DNA of 17,695 nt. It comes from a virus. Taxonomy: Duplodnaviria; Heunggongvirae; Uroviricota; Caudoviricetes. The notes beneath the pieces are model-generated. The model ran no database searches. It saw only the letters and a list, made by a program, of their open reading frames with translations, and had not been told where the DNA came from. The position numbers were made by a program, and so were the translations under genes. Where the stretch lies: IMG/VR virus record IMGVR_UViG_2778261667_000007, positions 1-17,695 of that record. One strand, written 5' to 3'. Position 1 is the first letter of the stretch. Each line of letters starts with the position of its first letter. Below, piece after piece: positions 2,985-14,411 of this stretch.

Positions 2985-3010
2985 AAAAGCCGCTGAGAAG
3001 CGGCTTTTTG
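2985..3010 (+). terminator. Rho-independent terminator (bidirectional-looking)
   Basis: Stem gccgct (2989-2994) / agcggc (2999-3004), loop gaga, then TTTTT (3005-3009); the A-run upstream (2985-2988) gives a U-tract on the opposite strand too. Confidence 0.8.
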
Positions 3011-3070
3011 GGTGTATAAATCCACTGCCATAGATTTATACGGTAGATAGATTTTTCACGGAACTATCTG

Positions 3071-4033
3071 ATGAGTATTTTAAATTCAGTTCCAGTAACT
3101 TTCAACACTTCTGAGTATAAAAACAACACTGAATACCACAAAAAAATCAAAGGTCATCAGTTGAGTTTTTTTGCTCGTCATAGCGGTTTTCTTTCCCCTT
3201 CACATAGCGCCATTATTGCCGAGTTCGCCAACCTGGCAGGGGCTACCGATGAATACATGATCCGTCGCTCATATGCTGATATGTCCGAGATTACAGGACG
3301 CAGTATTTCTACTGTGCGCCGGGCATTTACCGAAGCGACGAAGTGCGGAATGCTTGTTAAGCAGCATCAGGTAGCGAATAACAATGCTCAGGTGTGTAAC
3401 GTGTACCGGTTTACAACACAATTTCTCCACTTCATTCATATTGCAATGGAGATAGGGGGTAAGCAGGGCATCAAATTTGCCAACGCCACAAAACTGGTTA
3501 AGCAGTTGATTTCAAAAGTTCGTTATTTTTTTGAAACTGGGAACCCCCTGTTCAAATTGAACAAGCCCCCCCATGTTCAAAATGAACAGCCAATAGAAAA
3601 TAAGAGTCACTCTATAGCCAAAAGAAGAGAAAGATCATGCGCGGTTCAGCCAAAGGCTTCACCAGCAGATAGTTCTCAAGCGGATAATGGGGGGCTGGAT
3701 AAAAAAACAGTAATCAGGGAAGAACATACCAACCACTGCCTGGCGGCGGCAAAAGCGAGAGCTGCAAAGCGTCGTTCAGACGAGGGGCACGCAAAACGGC
3801 AGGCTCTGTATCGTACCGCTGAAAAGCTGGCAAAAAAATTTGCATGGATACGTAGTGCCGCTACCGCAGTGAATAAGCCTAAACAATCCAGTGCCCTGGA
3901 TTTCTCAATGGATTATTCTGGCTCCCAGGGATGTGCAACCATTGGTGAAGCCTTTGACCTGATGAAACAGCGTGGCTATCGGTCTGAATTTGACCGTGAG
4001 GATTGGTCAATACCTGCGGGATTTAGGGGGTGA
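3071..4033 (+). CDS. HTH DNA-binding protein (320 aa), candidate replication initiator or regulator
   Basis: Helix-turn-helix-like segment ITGRSISTVRRAFTEATKCGMLV; basic, low-complexity C-terminal half. The coding region contains two palindromes separated by poly-C (3549-3586). Weak SD at the start. Confidence 0.5.
   Translation: MSILNSVPVTFNTSEYKNNTEYHKKIKGHQLSFFARHSGFLSPSHSAIIAEFANLAGATDEYMIRRSYADMSEITGRSISTVRRAFTEATKCGMLVKQHQVANNNAQVCNVYRFTTQFLHFIHIAMEIGGKQGIKFANATKLVKQLISKVRYFFETGNPLFKLNKPPHVQNEQPIENKSHSIAKRRERSCAVQPKASPADSSQADNGGLDKKTVIREEHTNHCLAAAKARAAKRRSDEGHAKRQALYRTAEKLAKKFAWIRSAATAVNKPKQSSALDFSMDYSGSQGCATIGEAFDLMKQRGYRSEFDREDWSIPAGFRG
3549..3586. repeat. Two adjacent palindromes inside the 320-aa CDS: TGTTCAA-a-TTGAACA (3549-3563) and TGTTCA-aaa-TGAACA (3574-3588), each preceded by a C-run
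   Basis: Read directly from sequence ccccctgttcaaattgaacaagcccccccatgttcaaaatgaacag. Confidence 0.85.
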
Positions 4034-4086
4034 CCTGTGTGTCTACAAAACATCCCAATGATCGGAAAATGCTCGTTCGATAATTT

Positions 4087-4116
4087 GTGTTAGAAAATTA
4101 ATTTGCCGTTTCTAAA
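4087..4116 (+). promoter_or_regulatory. Recurrent motif copy 2: GTGTTAGAAAATTAATTT, with inverted partner TTTCTAA (7-bp arms TTAGAAA / TTTCTAA)
   Basis: Read directly; lies about 60 bp upstream of the predicted immI promoter. Candidate operator for a global repressor. Confidence 0.4.
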
Positions 4117-4171
4117 TCAGAATGTATGATCTGCATCATCGATTAAAGTCATCCATTGCTGAAATTTTTAG

Positions 4172-4200
4172 TTGATCTTCCATGTTTTCAGGCTTATATT
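4172..4200 (+). promoter_or_regulatory. Sigma70-type promoter (TTGATC - 17 bp - TATATT) for the c4-like / icd / ant transcript
   Basis: -35 TTGATC 4172-4177, 17-bp spacer, -10 TATATT 4195-4200; predicted TSS near 4207. Confidence 0.5.
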
Positions 4201-4299
4201 CATGCCGTCGTAGCAAATTCTGCGACCGGGTTTGACAGCCTGAATACTTACGCGGACAACCGCACATTTCCGATATTGCGGTATTTTTGTGTCCGTAAA

Positions 4300-4390
4300 A
4301 CCACGTTACGCCCGAATTATGGTGGGGCGTGATGGGGAGGCTTCGGCCTGCTGGTTTCGTAAGTGCCAGTCTGTCAACCCTGTCACGTCC
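4300..4390 (+). ncRNA. c4-like antisense regulatory RNA (immI-type); ends approximate
   Basis: Element b' CGTAAGT (4358-4364) is the exact complement of ACTTACG in the upstream leader (4246-4252) and at the icd-like SD (4429-4435); a' CTGTCAA (4371-4377) is the exact complement of TTGACAG at 4232-4238 and 4401-4407. This a1b1 - b'a' - a2b2 layout matches the P1/P7 immI architecture. Flanking hairpins: acgccc/gggcgt (4308-4330) and a UUCG tetraloop stem (4338-4349). Confidence 0.5.
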
Positions 4391-4446
4391 TGCCACCTGT
4401 TTGACAGCGGGTCGCAGGTTGTTTATCAACTTACGAGGCCGTAACT

Positions 4447-4671
4447 ATGGTTAATGCCAATCCTTGCTCACGTCCAGAATTCATCTGGCGTTTCCACTCT
4501 CTGCAAAAACACTGCGATCATTTCGCAATTGCCGCAACCGAAAAAGAAGCCCGTTCTCTGATCCCTGATCAACATGGCGTCCTGACTGGCCGTTTCTCTA
4601 CTTCCTCACAACCAAACACTAATCCCTGGTATCGCAATATTACCAATCCCGGCATTGCGGAGGCACACTGA
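4447..4671 (+). CDS. Icd-like small protein (74 aa), first ORF of the immI-type operon
   Basis: ATG 4447 with SD gagg (4434-4437) lying inside the b2 target element; stop TGA overlaps the next gene's ATG (TGATG at 4669-4673), indicating translational coupling as in P1 icd-ant. Confidence 0.5.
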   Translation: MVNANPCSRPEFIWRFHSLQKHCDHFAIAATEKEARSLIPDQHGVLTGRFSTSSQPNTNPWYRNITNPGIAEAH

Positions 4672-5378
4672 TGGAAATCTGCATTCTTGAAAAGCCATCA
4701 ATGACTAGCATTGAGATCGCGGAGCTGGTGGGAAGTCGTCACTCTGATGTTAAACGCAGCATCGAAAGACTTGTTGCTAAAGGAATTATCCAACATACGC
4801 CATTGGCTACAGTTGAGAATAATCAATCACTTAGCCCTAATAAATACACAAAAGCCTATTTCTTCGAAGGCGAACAAGGCAAACGCGATAGCATCATTGT
4901 CGTCGCGCAGCTCTCTCCGGAATTCACCGCCCGGCTGGTGGACCGCTGGCGCGAACTGGAAGAACAAGCACGCCAGCCGTTGACCGAAATAGAGATGATC
5001 GCCGCAATGGCTGCAAATGCAGTTCAGCAGCAAAAGCGGCTTCATGCTGTTGAGTCAAAGGTTAGCCAGGTCGCTGAAACCGTCGAGAAAATAAAGAAAG
5101 GCAATATTCCGGAAGGTTACATTGGCTACCGCCAGTTGGCGGCGAAATGCGGCCTGACTGAAGCCAAATGCCGCAACCTTGTCAACGCTTACCGGATCCC
5201 CACCGATACACATGAGTTTTTAACTCCCGAGGGGGTATTGTCGCGTCGTTCCATCGTGGCCTTATCTCCCTTCATGAATGCTTTTAACCGGATGATGTCG
5301 GAGGCTGAACACCGAGGAAAACGCTGGTATCACCCCAAAATGGGGCAATTCCAGGTGATCGGTTGGGGAGGTGAGTGA
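4671..5378 (+). CDS. Rha-family phage regulatory protein / putative antirepressor (235 aa)
   Basis: N-terminus MTSIEIAELVGSRHSDVKRSIERL matches the Phage_pRha signature (TS..IAE..GkRH.dV.R.I..L). Start overlaps the stop of the upstream small ORF. Confidence 0.6.
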   Translation: MEICILEKPSMTSIEIAELVGSRHSDVKRSIERLVAKGIIQHTPLATVENNQSLSPNKYTKAYFFEGEQGKRDSIIVVAQLSPEFTARLVDRWRELEEQARQPLTEIEMIAAMAANAVQQQKRLHAVESKVSQVAETVEKIKKGNIPEGYIGYRQLAAKCGLTEAKCRNLVNAYRIPTDTHEFLTPEGVLSRRSIVALSPFMNAFNRMMSEAEHRGKRWYHPKMGQFQVIGWGGE

Positions 5379-5575
5379 TGGACATCATGCAGGCGGTAAA
5401 AAAAATCAGGGAAGGACAGGCTGAAGTGTGCCGCCGTAAAGCATGGAGTGTTGGTGTATGGGCCTGGCCTGATAATTACTCTACTACCGGATGGTTTTGT
5501 ATTAATGGACTCCAGATCCGGGAAGTTGATTTATCGACGGCTGATATAGTCGGTAATGATTGGATCGTGACTTGA
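5378..5575 (+). CDS. DUF2829-like small protein (65 aa from ATG 5378; ORF track gives GTG 5375), possible Tad2-like anti-defence sponge
   Basis: Pattern IMQAVKKIREGQAEVCRRKAW ... VDLSTADIVGNDWIV resembles the DUF2829 consensus (FGEALEALKAGKKVARKGW ... DLLAEDWEIV). GGAGG SD at 5367-5371 sits 6 nt before ATG 5378; ATG overlaps the upstream stop (TGATG). Confidence 0.5.
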   Translation: MDIMQAVKKIREGQAEVCRRKAWSVGVWAWPDNYSTTGWFCINGLQIREVDLSTADIVGNDWIVT

Positions 5576-5583
5576 AGCGTGAT

Positions 5584-5607
5584 GCCCCGGCCAGGCCGGG
5601 GCTTTTT
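5584..5607 (+). terminator. Rho-independent terminator shared by convergent genes
   Basis: Stem gccccgg (5584-5590) / ccggggc (5596-5602), then TTTTT (5603-5607). The T-run overlaps the stop codon of the minus-strand peptidase gene. Confidence 0.75.
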
Positions 5608-6092
5608 CATGCCTCATTAGTTGAGGTTGCTGCGTCTCCGAATGGTAACAGAGCGGTATTGCGTGGTTCGCCAGCAGGCCAGCGATAGCCAGACACTCTT
5701 GATGTTGGGAATGCGCGAATATTAACCGCATCCCCCTGGTTCCCACCCAAGACAAGCAGATCGCCATTGGCGCGGCGTCCGACAACAAAGCCTACGTGCC
5801 CACCGCCTACGCGGGTAAATACAACGATACATCCGTATGCCGGTGTATCTAATTTCTCGCCCCAATCCAGATAGGATTTTGCCGACTCAAATCTTGTTGA
5901 GCGGATGCCTACACGTTCCAGCATTGCACCGACAAATGCTGCGCACCACGGCGTTTCATCGTCTTTAATTCCGCCGCGCTTGATGTCGCGCCAGAACTGA
6001 ACGATTTCAGGGTTGTGTTTAGCGCCTTTTATTTCAGTCAGGCCAATGTGCTTACGGGCTTCAATTAGCCAGCGAGGTTCAATGTTTGCCAT
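5607..6092 (-). CDS. CHAP / NlpC-P60-like peptidase (TIGR02594-like phage protein), putative cell-wall hydrolase (161 aa)
   Basis: Conserved-looking Cys and His motifs (DETPWCAAFV, GGGHVGFVVG, LVLGGNQGDAVNI, GYRWP). SD ggag 8 nt upstream of ATG 6092. The start lies within about 20-40 bp of the predicted IS right end. Confidence 0.6.
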   Translation of the reverse strand: MANIEPRWLIEARKHIGLTEIKGAKHNPEIVQFWRDIKRGGIKDDETPWCAAFVGAMLERVGIRSTRFESAKSYLDWGEKLDTPAYGCIVVFTRVGGGHVGFVVGRRANGDLLVLGGNQGDAVNIRAFPTSRVSGYRWPAGEPRNTALLPFGDAATSTNEA

Positions 6093-6104
6093 ATTTTTCT
6101 CCCG

Positions 6105-6330
6105 GTCATGGGTTAATAAGTAGGCAAACTATGGGGAGTATGTGATTTTGACGGTAGTATCGTCCCCGTGACTACTCCCCGCTCTGTCTGGCGAGGCTTC
6201 CCACTTCTTAGGCAGCAACCGTCTGTATGACGGATTTACGCTGGCCTCCATGGACAGAAACGACGAGTCCCGCCGCCTGTAGTTCCAGTATTCCTTTTTG
6301 CCGGATATTGAGCGCCGCATTGATGTCGCG
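6105..6330 (-). ncRNA. Candidate omega-RNA (reRNA) guide scaffold of TnpB, overlapping the tnpB 3' end and IS right end; extent approximate
   Basis: Established architecture of IS200/IS605 elements (omega-RNA derived from the tnpB 3' end and RE) plus the multi-stem structure seen at 6134-6181. Not confirmed by covariance model. Confidence 0.3.
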
Positions 6331-7383
6331 ATCATGTTCAATACTGCATTCCGGGCATCGCCAGATGCGTTTATGAAGCGGCATTTCCGGCATTTTGTAA
6401 CCACAACAATGGCACGTTTTCGAACTGGCAAACCACTGGTCGAGTTTTACCAGGTGAACGCCTTTTTCCGCTGCCTTGTACTCCAGCTTTGTGATGAAGC
6501 TATGCCAGCCTGCATCACCTATCGCTCTTGCCAGATTGTGGTTTTTCATCATGTTGGCTGTTTTCAGCGTCTCGACAATTACCGCTTGGTTTTCGTCAAC
6601 AATTGCACGAGAGAGCTTGTGTTGAAAATCAGCACGGGCATTAGCCACCCGTTCGTGTAACGCTGCCAGACGGATTCTGGCCTTTTTACGATTCGCGCTT
6701 CCCTTTTGCTTGCGGGATAAGGCTTTTTGTTTGCGTCGCAAATTACGGCTGGCATTGATGAGATGGCGGGGATTTGCAATTTTTACCCCATCAGACTTGA
6801 TGGCAAAGTGCGATAATCCCATATCTATCCCCGTCACGCGGGATATCATGGAAGGTCTGGCTGGCGTTTCCATGCCATCATCGCAGAGTAGCGATGCATA
6901 ATATTTCCCCGTCGCAGAACGAGTGATAGTGATGCTTTTCAGCTTTCCATGAAGTTCACGATGAAGGCGTGCCTCAATCGGGGAAAGTTTGGGGATTTTG
7001 ATGGCATTATCCAGCACCTTAACTCCGACACAGTGATAGCTGGATTGCCAGCCGTTCTTTCTCTTGAAAGTCGGAAACCGGGCTTTCAGCTTCGGATTAA
7101 AAAAGTTGGAAAATGCCACATCAAGATTAATTACCGCCTGTTGCAATGCCATTGAATCAAACTCTTTGAGCCAGGCATACCTGCGGGACTTTTTGGCCAC
7201 AGACAACAACGGTTTCAGATCGTTACGCGGACTTAAATTTACTCCGTGTCTCTGGTAAGCATGTTTTTTGATGTGAAGAGCTTTATTGTACGCAAAGCGT
7301 ACCGCGCCGAACTGGGCATTGAGATACTTTGCCTGTTCCGGTGTTGAATAGATGCGTACTTTTGTTGCTCTTAACATAGTCAC
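6208..7383 (-). CDS. tnpB: IS200/IS605-family TnpB (RNA-guided RuvC-like nuclease), 391 aa
   Basis: RuvC-I (TGIDMGLSHFA), RuvC-II (VIVETLK), zinc finger (CHCCGY ... CPECS) and RuvC-III (HDRDINAALNI) in canonical order. Start is GTG at 7383 or ATG two codons later (7377). Confidence 0.9.
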   Translation of the reverse strand: MTMLRATKVRIYSTPEQAKYLNAQFGAVRFAYNKALHIKKHAYQRHGVNLSPRNDLKPLLSVAKKSRRYAWLKEFDSMALQQAVINLDVAFSNFFNPKLKARFPTFKRKNGWQSSYHCVGVKVLDNAIKIPKLSPIEARLHRELHGKLKSITITRSATGKYYASLLCDDGMETPARPSMISRVTGIDMGLSHFAIKSDGVKIANPRHLINASRNLRRKQKALSRKQKGSANRKKARIRLAALHERVANARADFQHKLSRAIVDENQAVIVETLKTANMMKNHNLARAIGDAGWHSFITKLEYKAAEKGVHLVKLDQWFASSKTCHCCGYKMPEMPLHKRIWRCPECSIEHDRDINAALNIRQKGILELQAAGLVVSVHGGQRKSVIQTVAA

Positions 7384-7571
7384 TGCTCATTGGTACAGGT
7401 TTTTATGCTAACACCGTAATAATATTTTTAAAGCCCTGTGGGCTTTTCCGCCGTTCCTCCCCGCCAGCACTGGGCGAGGGTTCTCGGCGGTTTTCGCTGA
7501 AAATAACATTCTCCATACCCTCTCAACCGTACCGCATAGCGGAATTTTTACGGTTTAGAGGGGGAAATCCT

Positions 7572-10500
7572 TTGGACAAACTACTTCATTCAATCAGTGA
7601 AGCCTCCAGCTTAGGCGAACTGATTGAGATTGTTAGTCGGTTGCATAAATTACGTGCTGTTGCGACCTTTGGTGTCAGGAAAGCCGATGGCGTCAGTATT
7701 CAGAAAACACGCCGGGCAGCAAACAACGCCGCAGTAAATCTTCTTAATTCCCTTCCTCCCGGTTTCGATGGGGCGAAATTAACTGACGAACAACGTCAGA
7801 TTCTTGCCGGGTATACCGGTGAAGGCGGCCTGACAGATGGTGAGGGCAGCCAATACGAATACTACACGCCACAGTTTATGGCTGAAGGTATATGGGATCT
7901 GTTTGCTGACTACGGTATTGATGGCGGGCACGTACTGGAACCATCAGCGGGCACAGGTATTTTCCAGGAGACAAAACGGCAGGGCATGATAATGACCAGC
8001 GCCGAACTGTCTCCGATTTCCGGTCGAATAAACCAGCTTTTGCACCCGGAAGACGATGTGAATATCGGGGCGTTTGAGGCGCTGGCGGCGAAAGACGCAA
8101 TGTATGATCACGCTGTTGGTAACGTACCGTTTGGTGAAGGGCGTTCCGGTGTCGCCGGGCTTGATCCGGCATATGCAAACGAGAAGAACGTTGGCAATTA
8201 CTTTGTGTTGCGCACGATCGACAAGGTTAAGCCTGGTGGACTAATTGTATTGGTGGTGCCGAATGGCATGACCGATGGTACGAAATACAAAAAATTGCGC
8301 GATAAAGTCAGCCGTAAAGCGGAATTTTTGGGCGCACATCGTATGCCTTCTGGTACGTTCAGCGAATCTGGTACAGATACCGTGGTGGACGTATGGGTAT
8401 TGCGTAAACACCCGGAAACCTTCCTGGAGATGATCCCCGACACGGATGATGCAATGCTCAAATCGGCAAACGTCCTTTGGGATACCTTCCTCAAAGGGAA
8501 ATGGTTTACAACCGAAGGGAAGCGATTTGTTTACGGCGACATGGAACGCACCAGCTTCCGCAATACCCTGGTGGTGAAAAAGGACGGTCGTGTATCCAAT
8601 GAGTCGATGAAAACCGCGTTATCACGCCGCTTTGAAAGCCGTATTAATTGGGATTTGCTCGGAGTAACTACCCAGGCATGGCAGGGCGCAAAAGTAGGGG
8701 ATAAGCGTCTTGTAGGCGGTATCTGGCATGAGTTTGATGGCCTGAAATGGGTTAAGGACACGACAACCGAATCCTCCGCGCTTGATGTAAGTCGATATGG
8801 TGTTTCGACGTTTGGCGATCTGCAGATCGCGTTCCAGTCAACAAACGGGATTCTGGCTTTGTCATGGGACCAGATATCGGCGATCGCGTCCGACTATCCA
8901 TCGGTTGTCAGTGATGAAGTGGCAGCAATGATTCGCTTTGCTGGCAAACAGCGAGAAAAAGACAGGGAGCGCGTTATGCGCGGTGCGTTGATAGGGCAGT
9001 TGATCAACAAGGCACTTGATTTGCGTAACCTGGGGGTGAACGTTGATGACAAACTGGCAGATGCATCCCGCCTGGCGGCAGCAGAAGTTGCGAAGTATGG
9101 ACCACCGCACGCGATTAAGCTGAATGGGCTTGCAGAAGCTGGAGCTAAAAACTGGATGACGTTCACTGGCAACGTGAAACAGGATGGTTCCACTTCTGAC
9201 CTTCTGGCAGGGCGACTTGATGTAACGGATGGTGCTGCCGGTATTGACTTTACACGTCCTGAACAAGTGATAGCACATCTTTTCAGTGATGTAGCCCTTA
9301 ATCCTATAACGCTGGGCGACTTTCGTGAGGCGTTTGCTGGTGAACTGCCAGAGGACGACGACGCGGCCCTTGAATACCTGGCGAAATTTGATGATATCGC
9401 TATTGATGGGTATGGCTGCCTGCTGCTGATGGACCGCGCCACCAGCGGCGATATTGCAACCAAAACAGCATTGCTGATGGGCTGGCGTGATGCGTCAACA
9501 GGTGAGCAGAAATCGAACTTTGAGCGTCAGTTGGCGAAAATCGAAGAGAAACGCATTTTCACGCCACTAAATAAAGTCACCGTTAATCTGAATGCCCGCT
9601 GGCTGGATCGCCGTTTGATAAAAGAGTTCCTGGCAGAGCAGGGCTATGACGAGTTTAAGTACACTGAACCTGATCTGAAGGTCGTCGATGGCATTCTGGT
9701 ATCTCCGGACGATTACGAAGGTAAGGACGGTGTATTTACCGGCTATCAGCTACGAACCGTAAACGGCAAAAACGGGAATGAGTTCAAGAAGGCCAACAAT
9801 AAAGACGGCTTCCTGAACCAGTTAGAAAACTACCTGAACGGCGTCAAACCGCGCGGGCAGAACGCTAACGAGTACCTGGATAAGATTGCTCAACTTGAAG
9901 TTAGCTTTAACGACTGGTTACGCACCCACCCGCAGGCTGATCAGATAGCCCGTGACTATAACGACGCATTCAATGGCTTCATTCCGTTCACGCACTCTAA
10001 CGCACCGCTTGGCCTGGAAGGGATTAGTGGAAAGCGCATTCCTCTGACTTATCAGAATGAAGAAGTTCGGCGCTTGTCAGAAGATGGGCGCGGCATCATG
10101 GGATTTGGTACCGGGCTGGGTAAAACCACGACCGCGCTTGCGCTTGAGGCGTATAACTTCGAAACAGGTCGCACTAAACGCACGTGTATTGTTGTTCCGA
10201 AGGCGGTTTATCAGAACTGGTATCACGAGGCACAGAGCTTCTACAGTGCTGATGCCTTCGCCAATATGATGTTTATCGGTCTGGATGAAGTTCGTGATGA
10301 AGACGGCAATATTCTGACCGCGCCGGTGCTTGATGAAAATGGCGAACCCCGCCTGGACAGTAACGGGCAGCCTCTTACCCGCAATGTGGTGAAAGAATCC
10401 GCCAGCGCAGTTATCGTTCAGCGCATGAACATGATCCCGTCGTCAAATTGGCGAACGGTCATCATGACGAAAGAGCAATTCGCGTCTATCCCGCTACGAG

Positions 10501-13500
10501 AAGAAACCATTGAGGAAAACTCACAGCAAGCTGTCTTTAATGCTGTGGAAATGGGGCGTCTTGACCTGGCGTCCGGTAAACACCGTGACGCGCAGAAGAA
10601 GAACAAGATTAAGGATCAGGCAGCAAATACCGGTACAACGAAGAAGCAGAATATCCCGTACTTTGAGGATATGAACTTCGATAGCGTGATTGCCGACGAG
10701 GGGCATAACTACCGAAACTCCTTTAATGCCGGGCGTGAAGCGGGACAACTGGCATATTTGCCTAACCCGGCAGTATCCAAGATGGCCCGCGACATGGCTG
10801 TAAAAGCTGCGTACATGATGAAACGCAACAACGGGCGCGGTGTAGTCATGCTGACGGCAACTCCGCTGGTGAACAGTCCGATTGATGCCTTCAACATGCT
10901 GTCTACTGTCATTCCGCAGGAAGAGTGGATGCGCATGGGCATCATTACGCCTGATGATTTCGTTCGTGTGTTTGGCAAAACAGCAACAGTTCAGGTTCAG
11001 AAAATTTCCGGTGAGGTGGAAGAGAAGCAGGGGCTGGTGGGCTTCCAGAACCTGGACGGTCTGCGTGGTATTTTCCATCGCTGGACTACTCTGAAGAATG
11101 CTGCGGACGTCGGGGCGACGGTTAAAATCCCCGACATCATCGAGAACACCTTGCAGATCCCGATGACAGGGGAGCAGGAGACTGCTTATGAAGAACTTCG
11201 TAAGCGTGCTCAGGAGTTAAGTCGCAATGATGAGCTGACAGTCGATGAAAACGGGCATATCACTAACGACAAACCGGATGATTTCATCTTCTCCATCATC
11301 CGTGACATGGATAAGGTTGCTATAGACCCGGATCTGTATGCCAGTGCGATTACATTCCAGTTCCCCGTTGAGCTTGCAGACCAGGTAAAAGCTATTGCTG
11401 ATGCCTTGCCAAAAGTAGCTGGCGGTAAAGTGGCAGATGATGCAGACGAGGTCGAAGAAGATGGCGCTGGTGGGCTGGTCAGTACGCGTACCAGCAAGGT
11501 AGTGAAGACCACCTTTAGTGAACATCCGGCGCATGTTGAAATACGCGCCAGCATTGAACTGGAAACTGAAATACTGAAGGCCATTGCGGCTGCCGGTATT
11601 GATATGCAGCAGGTATCGCACCCCATCCCGCCGAAGTATGCCGCGCTGATCGAAAATCTTCGTGAAGGTCTGAAGAACGGTAAGCAGATCGTCTTTATTG
11701 ATGAAAAAGCCCAGCACCAGAAGCTGCGCCGTATTATCGCCAGTGCACTGCAAATGCCGGAGCAGGAGATAGGCATTATCAATGCGACGACCGTTAGCCA
11801 GGCTGGTGGCATCAAGCTGAAGAAGGTGAATAAGCCGACTGAACCTACTCTGAATAAAAACGGTGAATACAAAGAAGGGGCATGGGAAACCTACTACAGC
11901 AAACTTGCCCAATATGAGGATTATCTCTCAGCTAAAAATGATGCTGGCCTTGAGGGTATGGAAGGCATTGCCGCCGACTATAACGAAGGTCGCACGCGCA
12001 TCATTATCTGTAACAAGAAGGCTGAAGTAGGTATTAACCTGCATATCGGGACAACCGATATCCACCACCTGACACTACCCTGGACACCAGCCAGTATCGA
12101 CCAACGAAATGGGCGCGGTGCGCGCGTAGGTTCACCGCAAGAGAAGGTCAATGTTCACTACTACTGTGGCAAAGGCACATTTGATGATTTCCGCCTGGAT
12201 ACGCTGAAACGCAAGAAAGACTGGATCAAGATGGTGATGACCTCCGACATGTCAGAGATCGCCAATGGTGATGCGGATGATGCAGATGAACGCGCCATTA
12301 TGCTGGCAGCAAATCCGGAAGAGCGCCGCGCAATCATGGCCCGTCAGGCGCAAGAGCGTGAAGAACGCCTTAAACTGAAAGCGCAGCGCGAGGCCGGTAA
12401 TGCTCTTGATAACTACCTGAAAGCGGCTAATGCTGCCGGGAAAGATATCGGCATGATGGAGACAGAGCTGAAAAGCGCGATGGAGCAGGTAGAGCATTAC
12501 CAGCGCAATCTTGACGACCTGATAAAAGCGGGGACGAACAGGAACGGGCAAAAATATGTTCTAGAACAGTTGCGAGACTACAGAAAACGCGCGCGGGAGC
12601 TGCGGTTTGCTATCACCAGAGCAAAAGACGCTGATACCGTTATGAAACGCTCTCGCGGTGATCTGGAACGAGCCATTAAAGCCGGTATTCTGGAGCTTGA
12701 TGCCGATGTATTACAAAACCCACAGGAATATGTGCGAACTGAGAAAAATATCTTGTTGCACAAGGGCAGCCATTATCGAGCGATCATCGATGAGAATCAC
12801 AACACAACAGCAATTGTTCGTGTGACAGACATTGATGCGGAAAGAGGCGGATGTACTTGCCGCATATCCTGGCTGGATGTGGCTAGTCGTTACTCTCGCT
12901 CCCCCGGGACAGCATTGTATTTACCCTTTAACTTGATAATTGAAGCTGTATCTTTTGAAGAAGGAGTTGCTGAATCGCGTGAAACAGCCGCACGCGGTGT
13001 TCAGAGTCACCAATTATCAACAACACTTACTCGCGCTCAGTTCTATGATGCCATTCGAAATGGAGTCATGAAGGTTACCACCGGCAAGCCTGGTTTGGCA
13101 TGGGGCGGTGGGCAAGCGATTAAATACTGGGCCTATCGCACCGACGATGGTCAGATCGCTCTGTCAACGGCCTATGATGGCGTGATAGGCCAAAAAATCG
13201 GGCGAGCATCGGATATAGCACCTGAACGATGGATATATCCAGATGGCAACGATGAGGCGCTGAAGCGTGAAGTGGCAAAAATACAAGCCAGTGATAACCC
13301 GCTGAATATCGTGGACGGTGAGGGATTCCTCCAGGCATTGTATGGATATGATTACATCCAGGGAATGCAGGCATGGGGAGCGCAAGCCACAATGGATGAT
13401 GTTACCCAGGAATTTGAAAACTGGATGGCAGGGCGTGGTCTTTCTGGTCGTTCGCTTAACAAAGTCACGTCTGAAGATATTCTTAGCCTGTTCCGAAAAC

Positions 13501-14411
13501 CGTCCGGAGAAGGTCTGGAATTATTCTGGAAGACCGTGGTGGCATACCGTTTATTCCGGGGCAGGATGAAAGCCTTTAGCAACACTGATGACATTGAACG
13601 GATGTTTAATCAGGTGAAGGTCGCGAAAATTACGGCGAAAATCGAGAAGACACGAGCTGCGCTGGTGGCCTGGCGCGATGCATTGTTTGAGCAATATAAA
13701 TCACTCAGTGATGCAGATGGATGGGCTGCACTGGAACAGTTGGCGAATAATGGGGTAGATGGAGCGAAACTCGCCATTGTTCAGGCTGATAACCCTCTGG
13801 AATCACCGGCAGCACAATGGATTAAGGTGGGGGCTGTCATCAATGCATTTGATGAGAAACACATTAGTAAAGACGATTTTGCTGATGCTGTTTCTATTAA
13901 TCGCCTGGTAGAAATGGCTACCCGCCGCGCCCGTGAGTTGAAAGACGGTGACTATGTGAATGAGTTGCCGGATGCGCTCAAATCAGCAACGTGGCAAGAC
14001 TATGTATCGCTGAAAAACGGCGGTGCTACCGAATCAGAGATCGCTAAAAGACTTGAGCAGGTTGAAAGCAAAAGAGAAGAGCAGGCGGCAGTGGCTGACG
14101 CCAGAGCTGATGAAGCGGCGAATGATGACTATATCATTGTGGTTAATGATAAGCCGATTCGCGCTAAGGCGCGTGTTCGCGGGCGCTGGTGGAGCGTCAG
14201 CGAGGACGTCGGTGCGGTTTATCTCATTGCCGACCAACCTGGTTCCTCGACAATACGGAACGCCAAAGACGCGATTAAGAAGATTGGCGGGCGTTTCTGG
14301 AATTTTGAAGTAAACCCGGTTGCTGATGTGAACTTTGACCGTCCGGCATGGATGGTATCTACGCGTTACTCGGTAGATGAACTGCGTAAAATAATCGCCG
14401 ATGCGGCCTAA
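7572..14411 (+). CDS. Giant N6-adenine methyltransferase / SF2 helicase fusion (2279 aa), DarB-like antirestriction protein
   Basis: MTase motif I EPSAGTGIF (nt ~7938-7964) and motif IV NVPFGEG (~8121-8141); helicase Walker A GFGTGLGKTT (~10101-10130), DExH VIADEGHNY (~10692-10706), motif III TATP, motif VI QRNGRGARVG (~12103-12132); coiled coil and a ~600-aa C-terminal extension. TTG start at 7572 with SD agaggggg 8 nt upstream. Size and domain order resemble phage P1 DarB (recalled, not searched). Confidence 0.7.
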   Translation: MDKLLHSISEASSLGELIEIVSRLHKLRAVATFGVRKADGVSIQKTRRAANNAAVNLLNSLPPGFDGAKLTDEQRQILAGYTGEGGLTDGEGSQYEYYTPQFMAEGIWDLFADYGIDGGHVLEPSAGTGIFQETKRQGMIMTSAELSPISGRINQLLHPEDDVNIGAFEALAAKDAMYDHAVGNVPFGEGRSGVAGLDPAYANEKNVGNYFVLRTIDKVKPGGLIVLVVPNGMTDGTKYKKLRDKVSRKAEFLGAHRMPSGTFSESGTDTVVDVWVLRKHPETFLEMIPDTDDAMLKSANVLWDTFLKGKWFTTEGKRFVYGDMERTSFRNTLVVKKDGRVSNESMKTALSRRFESRINWDLLGVTTQAWQGAKVGDKRLVGGIWHEFDGLKWVKDTTTESSALDVSRYGVSTFGDLQIAFQSTNGILALSWDQISAIASDYPSVVSDEVAAMIRFAGKQREKDRERVMRGALIGQLINKALDLRNLGVNVDDKLADASRLAAAEVAKYGPPHAIKLNGLAEAGAKNWMTFTGNVKQDGSTSDLLAGRLDVTDGAAGIDFTRPEQVIAHLFSDVALNPITLGDFREAFAGELPEDDDAALEYLAKFDDIAIDGYGCLLLMDRATSGDIATKTALLMGWRDASTGEQKSNFERQLAKIEEKRIFTPLNKVTVNLNARWLDRRLIKEFLAEQGYDEFKYTEPDLKVVDGILVSPDDYEGKDGVFTGYQLRTVNGKNGNEFKKANNKDGFLNQLENYLNGVKPRGQNANEYLDKIAQLEVSFNDWLRTHPQADQIARDYNDAFNGFIPFTHSNAPLGLEGISGKRIPLTYQNEEVRRLSEDGRGIMGFGTGLGKTTTALALEAYNFETGRTKRTCIVVPKAVYQNWYHEAQSFYSADAFANMMFIGLDEVRDEDGNILTAPVLDENGEPRLDSNGQPLTRNVVKESASAVIVQRMNMIPSSNWRTVIMTKEQFASIPLREETIEENSQQAVFNAVEMGRLDLASGKHRDAQKKNKIKDQAANTGTTKKQNIPYFEDMNFDSVIADEGHNYRNSFNAGREAGQLAYLPNPAVSKMARDMAVKAAYMMKRNNGRGVVMLTATPLVNSPIDAFNMLSTVIPQEEWMRMGIITPDDFVRVFGKTATVQVQKISGEVEEKQGLVGFQNLDGLRGIFHRWTTLKNAADVGATVKIPDIIENTLQIPMTGEQETAYEELRKRAQELSRNDELTVDENGHITNDKPDDFIFSIIRDMDKVAIDPDLYASAITFQFPVELADQVKAIADALPKVAGGKVADDADEVEEDGAGGLVSTRTSKVVKTTFSEHPAHVEIRASIELETEILKAIAAAGIDMQQVSHPIPPKYAALIENLREGLKNGKQIVFIDEKAQHQKLRRIIASALQMPEQEIGIINATTVSQAGGIKLKKVNKPTEPTLNKNGEYKEGAWETYYSKLAQYEDYLSAKNDAGLEGMEGIAADYNEGRTRIIICNKKAEVGINLHIGTTDIHHLTLPWTPASIDQRNGRGARVGSPQEKVNVHYYCGKGTFDDFRLDTLKRKKDWIKMVMTSDMSEIANGDADDADERAIMLAANPEERRAIMARQAQEREERLKLKAQREAGNALDNYLKAANAAGKDIGMMETELKSAMEQVEHYQRNLDDLIKAGTNRNGQKYVLEQLRDYRKRARELRFAITRAKDADTVMKRSRGDLERAIKAGILELDADVLQNPQEYVRTEKNILLHKGSHYRAIIDENHNTTAIVRVTDIDAERGGCTCRISWLDVASRYSRSPGTALYLPFNLIIEAVSFEEGVAESRETAARGVQSHQLSTTLTRAQFYDAIRNGVMKVTTGKPGLAWGGGQAIKYWAYRTDDGQIALSTAYDGVIGQKIGRASDIAPERWIYPDGNDEALKREVAKIQASDNPLNIVDGEGFLQALYGYDYIQGMQAWGAQATMDDVTQEFENWMAGRGLSGRSLNKVTSEDILSLFRKPSGEGLELFWKTVVAYRLFRGRMKAFSNTDDIERMFNQVKVAKITAKIEKTRAALVAWRDALFEQYKSLSDADGWAALEQLANNGVDGAKLAIVQADNPLESPAAQWIKVGAVINAFDEKHISKDDFADAVSINRLVEMATRRARELKDGDYVNELPDALKSATWQDYVSLKNGGATESEIAKRLEQVESKREEQAAVADARADEAANDDYIIVVNDKPIRAKARVRGRWWSVSEDVGAVYLIADQPGSSTIRNAKDAIKKIGGRFWNFEVNPVADVNFDRPAWMVSTRYSVDELRKIIADAA

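Follow-up and report, generated by a model that had tools for sequence, protein, structure and literature searches.

The DNA analysed here, the whole 17,695-nt stretch of the viral record IMGVR_UViG_2778261667_000007 (hereafter the window), represents part of a D6-like plasmid prophage and equals the whole contig PTSF01000033.1 of assembly GCA_002965845.1, and between its genes for a CHAP-domain peptidoglycan hydrolase and a DarB-like protein it carries an insertion sequence (IS) with tnpB and no tnpA. We interpret this element as a non-autonomous IS of the IS200/IS605 family, derived by deletion of tnpA from ISEc46-type elements, which are IS605-like and possess divergent tnpA and tnpB genes, and we give this reading a probability of about 0.9. 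A preliminary description, made from the letters of the window, had proposed a tnpB-only IS200/IS605 insertion wedged between these two genes. TnpB profiles, clean ends and the target motif in relatives lacking the IS bear this out; the finding is real, with its boundaries and part of its interpretation corrected below.

The boundaries follow from a comparison with phage D6 (MF356679), which matches the window with 99% identity on either side and from which the element is absent. The empty site in D6 runs ...GTAGTATCGTCCCC|CTGAAAATAAC..., the two halves directly adjoining, and in the context ...GACGGTAGTATCGTCCCC|CTGAAAATAACATT... the window shares the left flank up to position 6167 and the right flank from 7497. 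The junctions are thus 6167|6168 and 7496|7497, and they are unambiguous because the bases beside each of them differ between the window and D6. The whole IS occupies 6168-7496 on the minus strand (1,329 bp), with its left end (LE) at 7496 and its right end (RE) at 6168. Filled and empty sites differ by exactly 1,329 bp with zero duplicated bases, and the termini, CGAAAACC... and ...AGTAGTCAC, are unrelated to each other, i.e. there are no terminal inverted repeats. The element sits in the middle of the 151-bp divergent intergenic region of D6, 75 bp from the ATG of the CHAP gene and 75 bp from the TTG of darB. The preliminary description was right to place it between the peptidase and DarB-like genes, and comparison with related IS-free genomes, which it had proposed, did define IS-type ends and a target motif; its span of 6100-7571 instead covers the whole intergenic space, and the D6 junctions contradict both a right end only 20-40 bp from the CHAP-like start codon and a left end directly upstream of the TTG of the giant gene.

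The same site is uninterrupted over the full 191-bp query in 102 PLSDB plasmids (86 from Escherichia, 14 from Salmonella and 2 from Shigella), 96 of them with at least 95% identity. An IS with exactly this TnpB was found at this site in no sequence other than the contig of the window and assemblies identical to it, e.g. Logan SRR11484456, and, as an exact search of IMG/VR for the RE junction returned no match, no independent viral contig of that database carries the insertion. Since the plasmids are uninterrupted and the IS is confined to the window contig and its identical assemblies, the insertion represents a rare, derived state of this site.

Both ends display the architecture of the family. 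LE (7430-7496, minus strand), delimited by alignment to the LE of full-length Serratia and E. coli elements, is abutted on its 5' side by the target or transposon-adjacent motif 5'-TTCAG-3' (7497-7501, minus strand), which belongs to the native DNA. In IS orientation it reads TTCAG|CGAAAACCGCCGA-GAAC-CCTCGCCCAGTGCTGGCGGGG..., that is, a 17-nt spacer that ends in the guide tetranucleotide GAAC (7480-7483) and an imperfect palindrome, CCTCGCCC..GGCGGGG (7459-7479), nested in an outer stem CCGCCG/CGGCGG (7485-7490/7448-7453). The foot of the palindrome is ambiguous by one base (a bulged T or a T·G mismatch), which leaves the covarying position unaffected. Further inwards follows a hairpin, AAAGCCCACAGGGCTTT (7430-7446), which in full-length relatives lies just past the tnpA stop codon. 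As single-stranded DNA, LE folds with -20 kcal/mol (z = -4.3), a value equalled by none of 200 shuffles. RE (6168-6200, minus strand) comprises the guide tetranucleotide GAAG (6197-6200), an imperfect palindrome CCTCGCC..GCGGGG (6177-6196), and a linker with the cleavage site, AGTAG-TCAC (6168-6176), reading ...GAAG-CCTCGCC AGACAGA GCGGGG-AGTAG-TCAC| in IS orientation. In the window copy two private substitutions, A in place of C at 6189 and A in place of G at 6183 on the IS strand, abolish the top two pairs of this palindrome, and a third private change alters the linker (GAGTAG vs GAGCAG). The 45 distinct RE sequences that we compared end in ...GGGGAGCAGTCAC|, thus in GTCAC| with a single exception (GTCAT|), before running into unrelated flanks. 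A perfect 8-nt inverted repeat, GGGGAGTA/TACTCCCC (6133-6140/6173-6180), straddles the RE junction of the window and is partly made by the private C-to-T change in the linker; we judged it to be a chance feature and not a signal, about one such pair being expected in 2 kb.

The target rule emerges from the comparison of copies. The four bases 5' of LE are TYAG in all of the roughly 25 independent insertions, and the LE tetranucleotide correlates completely with the target, GAAC accompanying TCAG at 8 sites (the window included) and AAAC accompanying TTAG at 17; at the other end, GAAG accompanies the cleavage site TCAC. In IS608 of Helicobacter pylori, the cleavage and target sites are chosen by guide tetranucleotides that adjoin the foot of the palindrome on its 5' side, the guide GL being AAAG for TTAC (PMC3201880). 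The window element shares with IS608 the imperfect subterminal palindromes, the tetranucleotide recognition, the insertion 3' of a tetranucleotide without duplication and a comparable spacing, of 17 nt at LE and 9 nt at RE vs 19 and 10 nt in IS608 (PMC3201880), but it pairs TCAG with GAAC instead of TTAC with AAAG, a pairing rule that we infer from covariation across copies. The covariation of GAAC/TCAG vs AAAC/TTAG thereby lends the IS608 target-selection rule a modest confirmation from nature, in another clade.

tnpB itself (6208-7377, minus strand) is an intact gene of 389 aa with an ATG start, which the list of open reading frames (ORFs) extends to a GTG at 7383. Its product matches the Pfam domains HTH_OrfB_IS605 (3e-17), OrfB_IS605 (1.5e-26) and Cas12f1-like_TNB (8e-25), all far above their cut-offs, and the solved structure of ISDra2 TnpB from Deinococcus radiodurans (8bf8) with an E-value of 4.6e-78, the homology extending over residues 4-379 of 389. 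Residues D185, E269 and D351 align to the catalytic D191, E278 and D361 of ISDra2, and C322/C325/C341/C344 align to its zinc finger (CxxC..CxxC), so that the RuvC-like D-E-D triad, the zinc finger and the wedge/helix-turn-helix N-terminal region expected of a TnpB are all present. Pfam, the ISDra2 alignment and a tblastn search thus agree with the earlier claim of a complete TnpB with RuvC motifs and zinc finger and without tnpA, and a lack of TnpB profile similarity, which had been named as the outcome that would refute it, is contradicted by both the profiles and the solved structures. We conclude that tnpB is an intact gene for a predicted RNA-guided endonuclease.

Copies with 80-92% DNA identity span positions 1 (or 3) to 1329 of the element at unrelated loci, the closest DNA match reaching 91.8%; they reside on plasmids of E. 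coli, Salmonella and Klebsiella, on the phage-plasmids RCS47 and p1_035148, and on a few chromosomes. Scanning species-representative genomes yielded 310 relatives, 80 of which were kept (63-86% aa identity), and these match TnpB over its full length. A subset of relatives, about 1.76 kb in length, contains a divergent 141-aa gene between LE and tnpB, which in Serratia plymuthica encodes a Y1 transposase (Pfam Y1_Tnp, 2.5e-35). About 450 complete genomes of E. coli show the same tnpA-bearing arrangement, with the transposase listed in RefSeq as 'ISEc46 family'. Aligned to such elements, the window copy consists of LE and the hairpin past the tnpA stop codon, fused to the stretch that separates tnpA from tnpB. 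Because LE with the tnpA terminator hairpin is joined directly to that intergenic region, tnpA was cleanly deleted, and the same deletion junction recurs in RCS47 and in a further plasmid copy (L006). Evidently, this tnpA-less lineage has reached many different sites, presumably by mobilisation in trans. One full-length, tnpA-bearing relative (84% aa identity) lies on a 3.4-kb contig (JAHEOE010000054.1) of a metagenome-assembled genome assigned to Candidatus Paceibacterota; as the affinities of the element are enterobacterial, this contig is probably a binning contaminant.

Taken as a member of the IS200/IS605 family, the element thus has subterminal imperfect palindromes at both ends (those at RE with weakened arms), lies 3' of TTCAG with a matching guide tetranucleotide, and is precisely inserted in the absence of terminal inverted repeats and target-site duplication. 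Only an element-encoded Y1 (HUH) TnpA, which its full-length relatives do encode, is missing, and it is accordingly a defective derivative and not an autonomous member of the family. Such a tnpB-only, non-autonomous condition is a known one, that of the IS1341 group of ISfinder.

The name ISEc46 is used here as it appears in RefSeq/PGAP and in the annotation of the RCS47 record, and does not refer to an ISfinder reference sequence. With ISEc46 the window element shares the architecture of LE and RE, nearly alike palindromes (CCTCGCCC..GGGCGGGG), the RE terminus ...AGTCAC, the TYAG target family and the omega-RNA consensus structure described below. TnpB is 85.6% identical to that of an E. coli ISEc46 copy, with DNA identity of about 78% from tnpB to RE, and the ISEc46 copy in RCS47 is 80% identical to the element at the DNA level. 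In contrast to ISEc46 with its divergent tnpA and tnpB, the window element has lost tnpA (about 430 bp deleted), and its LE guide and target are GAAC/TCAG instead of AAAC/TTAG; in IS608, tnpA and tnpB are co-oriented. Isoforms of one IS are by ISfinder convention expected to agree in roughly at least 95% of amino acids or at least 90% of nucleotides. With 78% at the DNA level and 85.6% in TnpB, figures obtained against annotated copies, the window element lies outside that range and is, at these identities, too diverged for the name ISEc46. Other close relatives are tnpB-only ISEc46-like copies, such as those of pQ501 (NZ_CP127256), RCS47 and p1_035148, which have the same 1.33-kb structure, tnpA deletion junction, TTCAG target and preference for plasmids and phage-plasmids; yet the best of them reaches 91.8% DNA identity, none occupies the site of the window, and the changes in the RE palindrome are private to the latter.

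Close tnpB-only relatives repeatedly adjoin repL in phage-plasmids (RCS47, p1_035148), and also adjoin antirestriction or psiA genes (relatives beside one or the other: L003 at 4021-5348, L002 at 3001-4327, H6-H11, H15, H20-H21 and L010). The antirestriction and psiA neighbours suggest leading regions of conjugative plasmids, which pass through a single-stranded stage that would suit single-strand transposition.

A further component of the element is a predicted omega-RNA scaffold (6168-6333, minus strand), which overlaps the 3' end of tnpB and RE. Its core (6168-6278) is well supported, and a possible long-range helix would extend it to about 6333, giving a length of approximately 110-165 nt. 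The consensus, derived by aligning the 3'-terminal 200 nt of the 45 distinct relatives, comprises 37 pairs in 6 helices and ends at the RE boundary. In it 98.4% of the cells are paired, and 11 pairs exhibit compensatory double changes in 62 cells, as opposed to 34-56% paired and 1-4 pairs with compensatory changes in slid controls whose partners were shifted by 1-3 columns; none of 500 shuffles attained the observed values. Several helices lie partly within the tnpB reading frame or across its stop codon, and since compensatory changes maintain the pairing even within the reading frame, a functional RNA is well evidenced. This conserved, covarying structure is the predicted omega-RNA scaffold, and in the window copy all helices are intact except for the top of the last one. 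A cognate omega-RNA (reRNA) at the 3' end of tnpB and RE is what a TnpB would be expected to have, and at the level of sequence it is present here.

Because the conserved RNA structure ends exactly at RE, the guide would be read from the flank that directly abuts it: GGGGACGATACTACCGTCAA (6148-6167, minus strand), for which we assumed a length of 16-20 nt by analogy with ISDra2. The preliminary description had anticipated an omega-RNA at the 3' end with a guide set by the flanking sequence, and as a prediction this is supported. TTCAG followed by the 16-nt start of the guide, GGGGACGATACTACCG, is intact in D6 and in plasmid p1_035148, and the 191-bp empty site is at least 99% identical in 65 further D6-like plasmids. 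In the window itself the guide matches only the flank, where it is preceded by AGTCAC and not by the TTCAG motif. It is known that the 3' end of tnpB, together with RE, encodes omega-RNAs (PMC8612924). The predicted organisation resembles that of ISDra2, in which the guide-RNA scaffold likewise derives from the 3' end of tnpB and RE and the guide from the flank (PMC8612924), and whose TnpB has the same triad and zinc finger. The two differ in that ISDra2 has been characterised experimentally, while the window element lacks tnpA and is known from its sequence. Their motifs differ as well, TTGAT in ISDra2 and TTCAG here.

The element entered the 151-bp divergent spacer of a D6-like plasmid prophage through single-strand 'peel-and-paste' insertion immediately 3' of TTCAG, leaving no duplication. 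We propose that transcripts of tnpB would then read across RE into the flank and, by analogy with established TnpB biology (PMC8612924, PMC10055086), would yield, after processing, an omega-RNA whose guide is GGGGACGATACTACCG(TCAA). The complex of TnpB and omega-RNA would cut the TTCAG-flanked empty site, as it exists in D6 and its relatives, and so favour retention or homing of the element, whereas the occupied site would be spared as the RE end replaces the motif; this follows the published model in which TnpB cuts vacant sites and spares the occupied one (PMC10055086, PMC10690162). To transpose again, the element would depend on an ISEc46-type TnpA provided in trans. As the guide and TTCAG exactly match the empty site of D6 and p1_035148, one might go further and regard TnpB as a gene drive borne by a phage-plasmid, or as an exclusion weapon against incoming or co-resident IS-free D6-like genomes. 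We consider this a long shot; were it true, IS-free genomes would be converted by homologous repair or eliminated, and the lineage bearing the IS would be at an advantage. In any case, the pair of filled and empty sites (window contig vs D6) constitutes a natural substrate for studies, in E. coli, of TnpB homing and of competition between phage-plasmids, and exact ends, target motif, guide and a covariation-supported scaffold are now at hand for an unnamed tnpB-only relative of ISEc46, a member of a lineage often encountered on plasmids and phage-plasmids of enterobacteria. As mobile elements go it is ordinary, standing out only for the cleanness with which it can be delimited.

The preliminary description went on to suppose that the insertion rewired the transcription of both neighbours, which would then depend on read-through from tnpB or on promoters brought in by the IS. 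Some features would fit such a role. The IS divides a 151-bp divergent control region at its midpoint, an omega-RNA guide can be made only if transcription crosses RE in the direction of the CHAP gene, and a terminator scan of 5900-7700 found no terminator-like site in the 75 bp between RE and the CHAP ATG; read-through into this gene, with which tnpB is co-oriented, is therefore plausible. For darB the same argument fails, since it is divergent from tnpB and read-through is unable to feed it, so that a dependence of both neighbours on tnpB does not hold and only the CHAP gene is reachable. Moreover, LE faces darB with a terminator-like hairpin, a remnant of the tnpA terminator, and each gene has kept its own 75 bp of upstream DNA, Shine-Dalgarno region included. 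A scan for consensus sigma-70 promoters across 5900-7700 returned 2 promoter-like sites vs 2.1 expected, none of them in the IS ends or in the two 75-bp stubs. Transcriptional rewiring of CHAP and darB as the main consequence of the insertion hence appears rather doubtful.

Several observations weigh against a mobile, TnpB-guided element, and some of them would rather fit a dead relic, in which tnpB and the ends decay and neither transposition nor guide RNA activity persists. As DNA, the RE hairpin of the window copy folds with only -3.8 kcal/mol vs -9.6 kcal/mol for ISEc46, no better than shuffles, and the two substitutions in its palindrome, joined by the third change in the linker, may reduce mobility to the point that the window copy is immobile. 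tblastn with two TnpA proteins found no tnpA in the 17.7-kb window (best E-value 2.2), and the exact TnpB protein occurs at one site only and thus provides no direct evidence that the element moved recently. That the IS was gained here, as opposed to being precisely excised elsewhere, is inferred from parsimony. Rfam applied to 5500-8000 at E <= 1 returned no omega-RNA family; taken by itself, the single-sequence fold of the 3' 233 nt (z = -1.5) carried no information either way, and it was the comparative analysis that decided the matter. The sole Rfam match, rnk_pseudo (E-value 0.57), was discarded as a chance match to the terminator hairpin at 5584-5602, outside the element. Against a relic speak the full-length tnpB with every catalytic and zinc-binding residue kept, the omega-RNA consensus helices (intact save for the top of the last), the strong fold of LE, and the guide and cleavage tetranucleotides preserved at both ends; we therefore hold complete decay to be unlikely, somewhat more so than the rewiring, and retain the interpretation of a non-autonomous ISEc46-derived IS.

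Domestication of TnpB into a TldR-like, RNA-guided DNA-binding regulator of CHAP or darB, which the location in the regulatory spacer of two divergently oriented genes and the known domesticated TnpB repressors of prophages (PMC10705468) might call to mind, was rejected as highly improbable, because the catalytic triad and both transposon ends, which TldRs have lost, are intact, besides which the guide is simply flank, 102 related plasmids function without the element and its close relatives occupy many unrelated loci.

With respect to its surroundings, the non-autonomous IS interrupts a segment in which the genes for portal and head protease are followed by repL, the C4 antisense RNA immunity region, icd, a Rha-type antirepressor, the CHAP/TIGR02594 hydrolase and the DarB-like protein. 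The hydrolase gene (5607-6092, minus strand; Pfam CHAP, 2.8e-7), whose ATG lies 75 bp downstream of RE, corresponds to orf16 of D6, annotated as 'putative peptidoglycan hydrolase'. On the other side, the DarB-like methyltransferase/helicase gene (7572-14411, plus strand) encodes 2,279 aa from a TTG start 75 bp from LE, with the Pfam domains N6_Mtase, SNF2-rel_dom, ResIII and Helicase_C; its D6 counterpart is orf15, 'similar to P1 gene darB', with an identical TTG start. The spacer between the two genes tolerates differing insertions, as another D6-like plasmid, NZ_CP085065, harbours there an extra ORF (8979-9476) annotated as a carboxypeptidase-like regulatory domain protein.

The native stub upstream of darB differs from D6 solely in a run of 5 T (window ~7545-7549) vs 6 (D6 ~3717-3722). 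It retains, as does D6, a 14-nt inverted repeat (7518-7531/7549-7562, plus strand; 93% complementary) with the inner palindrome CCGCATAGCGG; the 3' arm of the repeat overlaps the Shine-Dalgarno sequence, and the repeat could act in the control of translation or transcription. Within the window, further occurrences of ACCGCATAGCGGAA, the palindrome upstream of darB, do not exceed chance; the late promoters of P1 are stated to contain a 9-bp inverted repeat (PMC10695390).

Elsewhere in the window, two Rfam matches at gathering level, the a1/b1 targets of C4 (4194-4246, plus strand; 55.9 bits) and the C4 antisense RNA itself (4315-4400, plus strand; 69.6 bits), lie upstream of icd and the Rha-type antirepressor, and by these matches the region is identified as the P1-type immunity I module of the D6-like prophage. 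Finally, a perfect 9-bp GC-rich hairpin, GCCCCGGCC/GGCCGGGGC (5584-5602), followed by a T-run, is located between a convergent small ORF (5375-5575, plus strand) and the end of the CHAP gene, where it likely serves as a bidirectional terminator.

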